Positions 52,972 through 55,404 of a stretch of 64,000 nucleotides of DNA are shown piece by piece. Source of the stretch: Trichoplax sp. H2 (Eukaryota); NCBI GenBank assembly GCA_003344405.1, contig NOWV01000103.1, positions 1 to 64,000 on the forward strand, written 5' to 3'. Position numbers and translations under genes: made by a program. Within the stretch, counting starts at the first letter, position 1. Each line of letters starts with the position of its first letter. The notes below the pieces were generated by a model, which saw only the letters and a program-made list of their open reading frames with translations, made no database searches and was not told the origin of the DNA.

Positions 52972-55404
52972 ATGGCGGTTGTAAACGGTAAGATTGAGCA
53001 AGTTAATCTTCTTTTTTACCTTGTTGAAAACTGTAAACTATGGTCGATATTCACACTAATTCTAGATACAACTTCACTCGATCATAGTATACTTGTAGAA
53101 AATGCGAAATGTTGCTTTTACTAACCAGAATGACAGACAACTGCGTAGCATGAATTACGCGACGTAGGGATATGAAAACGGTATTAAGAGCTGAATTTTT
53201 TTTTCTTCGCCTTTTATTTACTTATCTTAGCATTTCGTCGAGGAATTTTATTAAGTGAAGGCCAGCTGTAAGTCAAATTCTGCTATGTTGTATTGCATTG
53301 AAACAACGCCTGAAATCAAACTACGTAGTATCTATGTTACGAGCTATACAGTAGAGCAGAAAAGTTCTTTAGCCTGTGGACGCTAACTTACCGTAACCGC
53401 ACAGTACTAAAGTCAACTGAACACGTTGTCTACTGCAACTGCCTTCAAAAATTGCTCGGAATCTTCCTTTTTGGTTATAATTGACGATATATTTACTAAA
53501 CTTTCAACCACATTTCTCTCTACAAGCAGATTACTAGTTTCATTCTTTTCATAACTGCTACTTGGCTGTTTGTTCGCGCACTTTTCTTTACAAAATGACC
53601 TATTCCAGTAATATAGTGTTGCTTCTGTAAACCGTGCTTATACCATACATTATATAGTACAGTACTGTACATATTTATGCAGTACTCGTTTAATAATATA
53701 GTTTGCTATTGCGATACTTCTGTGGGATTGCATCTCATGATATTATATCTACTGCAGCCGGTGTTCCTCTTCCCTATTTTTCCTACAAACGCGTAAATTA
53801 TATCAATCACGCCAGGAAGAGCCTAAACATGAGAAAAGGTAACTTACTTTACTTGATGATAAAAAGTATAAAAAATAACCACATCTACTCCGTCCTGCAA
53901 CGTGAAAACTCATAGTTGTGTACTCTCTACTAGTCTAATCCCATATCGTCAGCAAAGTTCAACTACCGCTCCTGATCCTGCTTTCAAACCTAATAATACC
54001 GCGGAATTCGTTGTTGCTAAAGTCGATGATGTCATTAATTGGGCAAGAAGGGTAAGTCCTGGTAATGTAATGGTTGTTTGAAAAACAATCTATACCGGTT
54101 TAGCATATTGTAGTCATAGTTCTATTTACCAACCTCTGCTGAATAAACTTTTAAAATTAGGACTGTAAGATAGAATAGAATCTATTACTACATTATGATT
54201 ATTGATACTGTAGATACTTTTAGCGCAAAAACTTTTTTAATAGCTGATACGCACAGTACAGTACATATCGAGCAGAAGTCATTTACGTATGCTTGATTAG
54301 TGTTGAATGTTATACTTCTGCTGTGCTTAATGACTATATATATACGTAGAGTTCCTTATGGCCTATGACGTTCGGCCTTGCTTGCTGTGCAATTGAAATG
54401 ATGCAGTTTGCTGCCCCACGGTAAGTGATAAAAGAAACAGCATAGCAAGCAATTAATTTAGTGTTACTGTAGATTGATAATGCTGATAAGAAATATTTGG
54501 AGAGTTTACGAAACTAATCTGTCACTGTTCTATATAGATATGATATGGATCGGTTTGGTATCGTATTTCGCGCTAGCCCGGTACAGTCATGATGATACAG
54601 TTAATACAGTTAAATAATAACTCTGTTGACATGTTTAAAAAGTACGTGTAAAGTAATAAACTGATGCTTATTCTGACTAGCGTCAAGCAGATGTAATGAT
54701 TGTAGCCGGAACCCTAACCAATAAAATGGCTCCCGCTTTTCGCAAGGTCTGTATTTCTAGGCCATTATATCCATCTTACTAAATTATAGTATGCTTTATT
54801 GTTCATACGTACGTATACGAACCTTTAAATTTTGACTTTCCGCTTAAAAAAGGTTTACGATCAGATGCCTGAACCACGCTGGGTGATCTCTATGGGAAGG
54901 TACTCTATTGTGGCTAAATTTAATGTCATTATCGCAACATGAATTAAAATAAGGAGTTTGTCAATAATGTTACCTGTTGCACTAATTAAGCCGGCTTGCA
55001 TACTTGTAATCACTGTGGTATGCTCGTGTCTTACGGTGCAAATAGAAACGCAGTTATTTCTGACCTTGGCTCTTTATAAAACATGAGCTCAGGTCCTGGA
55101 TTTCTGCAACAATTTATTCTAAACAAATAACAGACTATGTTATATAGGGTAATGACTAAAAGCACTCTTTTTATACTTTTCTGGCATTCGTCTAATTTCC
55201 ACTAACTAATTTTCTAGCTGTGCTAATGGTGGAGGATATTATCACTATTCATATTCGGTTGTTCGAGGATGTGATCGAATTATTCCTGTTGATATTTATG
55301 TACCTGGTTGTCCACCTACCGCTGAGGCTTTACTCTACGGTTTCTTGCTACTACAAAAGAAGATTAGGCGATCAAAATCTGTTACTATGTGGTTCAGGAA
55401 ATAA
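52972..55404 (+). CDS. NDUFS7: NADH:ubiquinone oxidoreductase PSST subunit, mitochondrial precursor, multi-exon
   Basis: Presequence exons [24 protein letters not shown].... Core [93 protein letters not shown]. Stop TAA 55402-55404. Confidence 0.97.
54975..55114 (+). ncRNA. Box H/ACA snoRNA with SNORA70-like 5' hairpin; in NDUFS7 intron 54900-55217
   Basis: Hairpin 1 TTGCACT(54977)...GGTGCAA(55041) with upper stem GCATAC/GTATGC. H box ATAGAA 55042-55047. Hairpin 2 GCAG...CTGC with upper stem ACCTTGGCTC/GAGCTCAGGT. ACA at 55109-55111. Pocket AATTAAGCCG (54984-93) is the exact complement of conserved 18S CGGCUUAAUU. Confidence 0.82.

Follow-up and report, generated by a model that had tools for sequence, protein, structure and literature searches.

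A candidate intron-encoded box H/ACA small nucleolar RNA in the NDUFS7 gene of Trichoplax sp. H2, with predicted target sites near helix 31 of 18S ribosomal RNA

A 64,000-nt stretch of the genome of the placozoan Trichoplax sp. H2 (contig NOWV01000103.1, positions 1 to 64,000; hereafter, the window) carries the NDUFS7/PSST gene on its forward strand, and one intron of this gene encloses a candidate box H/ACA small nucleolar RNA (snoRNA) on the same strand (Table 1). The last exon of the host gene matches Pfam PF01058 (NADH-ubiquinone oxidoreductase 20 kDa subunit, PSST/NDUFS7; E 4.3e-09), and the joined exons translate to a typical NDUFS7 protein with the reading frame running across the junction. 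The host intron is a 318-nt GT..AG intron whose removal is observed directly: it is spliced out exactly in one contig from each of two RNA runs (X19 and X20). These contigs also lack the three NDUFS7 introns before it (117, 100, and 106 nt), each about one-third as long as the host intron. The candidate RNA therefore lies in sense orientation within a spliced intron, which is the genomic context of animal-type H/ACA snoRNAs.

Contigs of two further runs (X4 and X12) span the introns and look like DNA. Each run differs from the window at four positions over 1201 nt, with no difference inside 54975-55114, which is uninformative with regard to constraint because only about one difference is expected per 140 nt. 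Two of the single-base differences, at 55142 (A>G) and 55162 (G>A), are common to both runs and lie within the intron, shortly beyond the 3′ end of the candidate RNA. Another long NDUFS7 intron, of about 300 nt, precedes the exon starting at 54350 (~54051-54349 on the forward strand, with coordinates deduced from loose contig ends and the reading frame); it gave no match in the Rfam scans, which included no dedicated search for C/D boxes.

Table 1. Positions in the window of the host intron and of the parts of the candidate snoRNA (DNA letters in brackets after RNA letters).
Feature	Position	Strand	Basis or remark
Host intron	54900-55217	+	X19/X20 spliced contigs, reading frame, Pfam PF01058 on the last exon
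Candidate box H/ACA snoRNA, ~137-140 nt	54975-55114	+	Fold; 5′ end inferred, 3′ end placed 3 nt past ACA
Hairpin 1 lower stem, 5′ strand	54977-54983	+	Pairs with 55035-55041: 6 Watson-Crick pairs and U54983-G55035
Pocket 1 5′ guide strand, AAUUAAGCCG (AATTAAGCCG)	54984-54993	+	10/10 pairs with 18S, starting two nt 3′ of the predicted target U
Hairpin 1 upper stem and loop	54994-55027	+	Fold
Pocket 1 3′ guide strand, GUCUUAC	55028-55034	+	Weak pairing with 18S GGAGCC 5′ of the predicted target U
Hairpin 1 lower stem, 3′ strand	55035-55041	+	Pairs with 54977-54983
H box, AUAGAA (ATAGAA)	55042-55047	+	Fits ANANNA; immediately after the hairpin 1 lower stem, 2 nt before stem 2
Hairpin 2 lower stem, 5′ strand, GCAG	55050-55053	+	Pairs with CUGC 55104-55107
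Pocket 2 5′ guide strand, UUAUUUCUG (TTATTTCTG)	55054-55062	+	8/9 pairs with the 18S variant
Hairpin 2 upper stem and loop	55063-55094	+	4 bp, 1x1 mismatch, 5 bp; loop 55073-55084
Pocket 2 3′ strand	55095-55103	+	CCUGG (CCTGG) at 55095-99 makes 5/5 pairs with 18S CCAGG
Hairpin 2 lower stem, 3′ strand, CUGC	55104-55107	+	Pairs with 55050-55053
ACA box	55109-55111	+	One nt after stem 2; 3 nt before the inferred 3′ end at 55114

Folding of 54975-55114 gives two hairpins with a minimum free energy (MFE) of -44.5 kcal/mol (z -3.96), and none of 200 dinucleotide shuffles folds as well. The canonical architecture keeps -33.2 kcal/mol when both pockets are forced open, and the reverse complement folds less well than the sense strand (-32.9 versus -42.6 kcal/mol). 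The upper part of hairpin 1 consists of G54994-U55027 and C54995-G55026, a 2x2 internal loop, and 7 bp (54998-55004/55017-55023) closed by a loop at 55005-55016. The element has the hairpin-hinge-hairpin-tail order of the class with the H box in the hinge, and the tops of its pockets show the box spacing of the class, 14-16 nt: pocket 1 is 14 nt from the H box (55028-55041), and pocket 2 is 14 nt from ACA (55095-55108) with the G55062-C55095 pair open, or 13 nt with this pair closed. In mature RNAs of the class, ACA stands 3 nt from the 3′ end, which here would be 55114. A preliminary description of this DNA had placed a two-hairpin H/ACA structure in a 318-nt NDUFS7 intron; all of its coordinates and strings are present, and the fold and the splicing agree with it.

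The frequency with which such a layout arises by chance was estimated with a purpose-made, crude H/ACA scanner, which requires a lower stem, a pocket, an upper stem, and a box at a spacing of 13-16 nt, twice in tandem. The scanner yielded 13 candidates in the window, compared with 6.1 ± 2.3 per window in a null set of 30 block-shuffled 64-kb windows. An MFE of -40 kcal/mol or lower is reached by four of the 183 null candidates (about 0.13 per window); the candidate RNA has -41.7 kcal/mol in the scanner. Four candidates in the real window reach this energy, namely the one in the NDUFS7 intron and those at 675-827, 1740-1898, and 52352-52513. The matches at 675-827 and 1740-1898 were discounted as lying within repeats, and the strong fold of 52352-52513 is that of a long near-perfect inverted repeat with the wrong layout. 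Also rejected as an H/ACA RNA was 48022-48174 (fold z 0.11).

Potential targets were sought in 97 eukaryote 18S-bearing metagenome loci, which were fetched with a 25-nt conserved motif and served as surrogates for Trichoplax 18S ribosomal RNA (rRNA). H/ACA pockets pair with rRNA in two parts, on either side of a U and one further nucleotide that stay unpaired. Every U of each locus was scored against each pocket by a simple bipartite pairing score, and the null was provided by shuffled pockets scored anywhere on a 9-kb or a 14-kb ribosomal DNA locus (1000 trials per locus). Pocket 1 selects the U directly 5′ of the selecting motif, and this site ranks first across the entire locus in 87 of the 97 surrogates. 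All 97 loci have a U at this position, and 85 have GGAGCC in front of it. The complementarity to conserved eukaryote 18S is thus observed, with a 10/10 helix in the right arm (-11.7 kcal/mol) and 4/5 pairs in the left arm, formed by the 3′ strand (-0.7 kcal/mol), just as the preliminary description had it: ten of ten pairs, a U at 14-nt spacing, and a weak 3′ strand. With shuffled pockets, 17 and 19 trials out of 1000 reach this score. Alternative registers of the pockets, obtained by opening or closing one upper-stem pair, find no better conserved target.

In human 18S, pseudouridines occur at 1232, 1238, and 1244, and the hypermodified m1acp3-Psi at 1248 (Taoka et al., 2018, Table 1). With the hypermodified helix-31 uridine set as 1248, all four positions land on U in the conserved motif by spacing, and the predicted pocket 1 target is then the equivalent of human U1232. 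Psi1232 has a stoichiometry of 98% in human (Taoka et al., 2018, Table 1), is present in all nine vertebrates examined (Deryusheva et al., 2019), and is described as visible in a 2.15 Å cryo-EM map.

Pocket 2 in its 14-nt register selects a U located 39 nt 3′ of the pocket 1 site, in the context CCAGG-UC-CAGACAUAG. The 3′ strand of the pocket makes 5/5 pairs with CCAGG (-6.7 kcal/mol), and the 5′ strand makes 8/9 pairs (seven Watson-Crick, one G-U; -3.5 kcal/mol), which leaves a single mismatch. The 16-mer in its exact form occurs in 18 of the 97 surrogate loci. Of the 91 loci that include the target position, 72 have a U there, and the site is the top-scoring one in 54 of these 91. Shuffled pockets reach the pocket 2 score in 43 and 44 of 1000 trials. 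The strings, the single mismatch, and the 18S segment that the preliminary description had given for this pocket exist, the 14-nt spacing holds only with G55062-C55095 open, and the second site does lie on the 3′ side, with a measured distance between target uridines of 39 nt in place of the approximate 35 nt given there. The target aligns with human 18S position 1271, where vertebrate-type variants in the sample carry C; therefore, this would be a non-vertebrate site. Judged by base pairing, pocket 2 probably has a second 18S site, provided that placozoan 18S has the CCAGG-UC-CAGACAUAG variant.

Taken together, 54975-55114 is likely to be an intron-encoded box H/ACA snoRNA of Trichoplax. This is the best reading because the fold beats its shuffles, the element lies on the sense strand of a long spliced intron, both pockets allow the 14-nt spacing, pocket 1 falls on a site known to be modified in vertebrates, and a second 18S site is plausible. 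Several points weigh against it. The H/ACA layout alone is not rare, given the 6.1 scanner candidates per shuffled window, and no Rfam family reaches its gathering score in the window, the best permissive match having E 0.8. The left arm of pocket 1 is very weak, pocket 2 attains its spacing only if a G-C pair in its upper stem opens, and the position that it selects is not a U in 19 of 91 loci. By the crude pairing score, the target p is only ~0.02 for pocket 1 and ~0.04 for pocket 2. The right-arm match of pocket 1 in the surrogates is circular because the selecting motif contains the complement of that arm; the motif selection has no bearing on the target U or on the left arm. The X19 and X20 contigs cover NDUFS7 exons only and leave the intron interior uncovered, so they are informative neither way on a small RNA.

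Some of these points, namely the scanner background, the target p values, and the Rfam result, would also be accounted for by a chance structure, that is, an AT-rich intron that folds with an ANANNA and an ACA well placed and gives rise to no stable RNA. This explanation is unlikely: the fold stands far above its shuffles at an energy reached by so few null candidates, and the element occupies the sense strand of a spliced intron with canonical spacing of both pockets. In addition, pocket 1 falls on a site that is pseudouridylated in vertebrates, and this is unlikely to come about by chance, given that pseudouridine makes up about 8.8% of the uridines in human rRNA (as quoted in PMC12273003). 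A genuine H/ACA RNA might instead act on other targets, such as 28S rRNA or a spliceosomal small nuclear RNA (as a small Cajal body-specific RNA, scaRNA), or have an orphan role. The weak 3′ arm of pocket 1 would fit such a role, and pocket 2 also fits the conserved large-subunit sequence UUUGGG-UA-UAGGGGCG (8 loci, score 26), but that pairing is rich in G-U and is outscored by the 18S sites, which pair in Watson-Crick fashion. The CAB box of scaRNAs has the consensus ugAG and is located in apical loops. A CAB-box-like UGAG does occur at 55084-87, at the loop-stem border of hairpin 2 and mostly inside the predicted stem; the loop of hairpin 1 (55005-16) is without UGAG. A reading of this kind is very unlikely.

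The remaining explanation concerns the ancestry of the RNA. The predicted guide for 18S-1232 is the 5′ stem of SNORA70A/B/E, whose conservation is given as 'Vertebrates' (Jorjani et al., 2016, Table 2). The preliminary description had called hairpin 1 SNORA70-like on the basis of a guide decamer in common with human SNORA70, and this is functionally apt, since the SNORA70 5′ stem is predicted for the same site; kinship does not follow from it. Guides for one site share guide letters whether related or not, so the shared decamer is no evidence of descent. The search with the Rfam SNORA70 model (RF00156) that the description had put forward was negative: the model has no match at gathering score in the window, and neither 54850-55250 nor hairpin 1 by itself gives one at E<=10, so that membership in the family is not supported. 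A true SNORA70 orthologue by descent, in which the 5′ hairpin has been kept and the 3′ guide and the host gene have changed, would account for the identical predicted target and the identical 5′ position of the hairpin. This is improbable in view of the unmatched model, the vertebrate range assigned to SNORA70, and the outcome of a survey of Trichoplax with human H/ACA queries (Hertel et al., 2009; see below).

As intron-encoded H/ACA RNAs whose 5′ hairpins are predicted for 18S-1232, the candidate and vertebrate SNORA70 (U70) are thus alike, both assignments being predictions. The best conserved match of the candidate 3′ pocket is the site 39 nt 3′ of the first one, whereas the classical 3′ target of SNORA70 is taken here to be 18S-1692, by the snoRNA-LBME-db assignment. 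None of the ten commonest high-scoring pocket 2 contexts lies ~460 nt 3′ of the motif, a ranking in which the 18S-1692 site itself was not scored separately. The hosts also differ, being NDUFS7 for the candidate and presumably RPL10 for SNORA70. In the texts available of three further sources, one (Deryusheva, 2021; PMC8522698) makes no mention of 1232 or SNORA70, a paper on ribosomal-protein introns of sponges (PMC3412847) makes no mention of SNORA70, and a plant pseudouridine map (PMC12273003) has no site-level text.

A permissive Rfam scan of 54850-55250 (401 nt) ranks two plant H/ACA families highest, snoR137 (RF01433; 18.5 bits, E 0.8) and snoR98 (RF00307; 17.8 bits). Both align end to end and stop at 55114, with scores below the gathering scores of 44. 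These RNAs resemble the candidate in two-hairpin layout and in 3′ end, and their guide regions are unlike those of the candidate; by these alignments, the matches would reflect a generic likeness to the class and not a family assignment. A permissive scan of 53000-64000 gave only two insignificant matches.

Previously, Trichoplax adhaerens was searched with all 94 human H/ACA snoRNAs of snoRNA-LBME-db, and the H/ACA entries that were kept are U17, a questionable U71, and a novel RNA at sc.3857:103-213, one of them unambiguous (Hertel et al., 2009; PMC2655684). The candidate is of the same class, likewise from Trichoplax, and is absent from Table 3 of that study; the novel RNA listed there was assigned to 28S U1370 and U1884, whereas the proposed targets of the candidate are in 18S. 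The host genes of Trichoplax snoRNAs are not conserved with human (Hertel et al., 2009), and NDUFS7 is therefore not a very atypical host, although it had been described as atypical. A limited literature search found no Trichoplax snoRNA survey later than that of 2009, and a similarly limited one found no literature on NDUFS7 in connection with a snoRNA and pseudouridylation. The candidate is thus probably an H/ACA snoRNA that is new relative to the 2009 list and otherwise ordinary.

For the candidate snoRNA in the NDUFS7 intron, expression, processing, protein binding, and both modifications are inferred along the following lines. The RNA would be released from the spliced intron and then trimmed to ~140 nt. 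Dyskerin/Cbf5, Nop10, Nhp2, and Gar1 would bind it at the two hairpins and at the H and ACA boxes. The 5′ pocket would clamp 18S with the U1232 equivalent unpaired where the upper stem begins, at 14 nt from the H box, and this U would be converted into pseudouridine. The hypermodified helix-31 uridine, taken here to be human 18S position 1248, would lie 16 nt 3′ of it. The 3′ pocket would guide modification of the second 18S uridine, 39 nt further 3′, given the CCAGG-UC-CAGACAUAG variant.

Several other features of the window were recorded. Just 3′ of NDUFS7, on the opposite strand, 57283-58815 (-) and 56639-57160 (-) belong to a gene for MPP10 (Pfam PF04006), a protein of the U3 small nucleolar ribonucleoprotein. 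The 511-residue frame at 57283-58815 (-) has 99% identity to a Trichoplax adhaerens protein, the next best match having 59%. The location of MPP10 beside the host gene of a snoRNA is probably a coincidence. An exon of ribosomal protein S15 is present at 61147-61437 (+) (Pfam PF00203, Ribosomal_S19; E 4.4e-14), and its surroundings gave no snoRNA-like match in the permissive Rfam scan of 53000-64000. As to the regions of the discounted scanner matches, 375-839 (+) is a repetitive, low-complexity reading frame rich in TVQY-like repeats, and 1241-1888 (+) is repetitive DNA with a ~75-codon unit in about three tandem copies; both are sources of false scanner matches. The region 52345-52516 (+) has an MFE of -42.9 kcal/mol (z -4.34), mainly due to a long near-perfect hairpin at ~52434-52500, and looks like an inverted-repeat element; a short hairpin at 52287-52343 is related to that hairpin.

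Placozoan snoRNAs are almost unknown. The equivalent of 18S-1232 adjoins helix 31 at the P site, and the candidate would designate a concrete rRNA-modification site in an early-branching animal. Yeast is not known to have pseudouridine at the corresponding 18S site. On a broader and speculative view, which at present is rather doubtful, a guide for the helix-31-proximal pseudouridine (18S-1232) might already have been present when placozoans and bilaterians last shared an ancestor. The SNORA70 hairpin would then be an ancient module that has been combined with various second hairpins and has changed host genes, and the modification would be pan-metazoan; in Trichoplax, it would be coupled to another pseudouridine, of non-vertebrate type, on the opposite side of helix 31. 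If credible, a placozoan guide for 18S-1232 would extend the modification, and possibly the guide, well beyond vertebrates.

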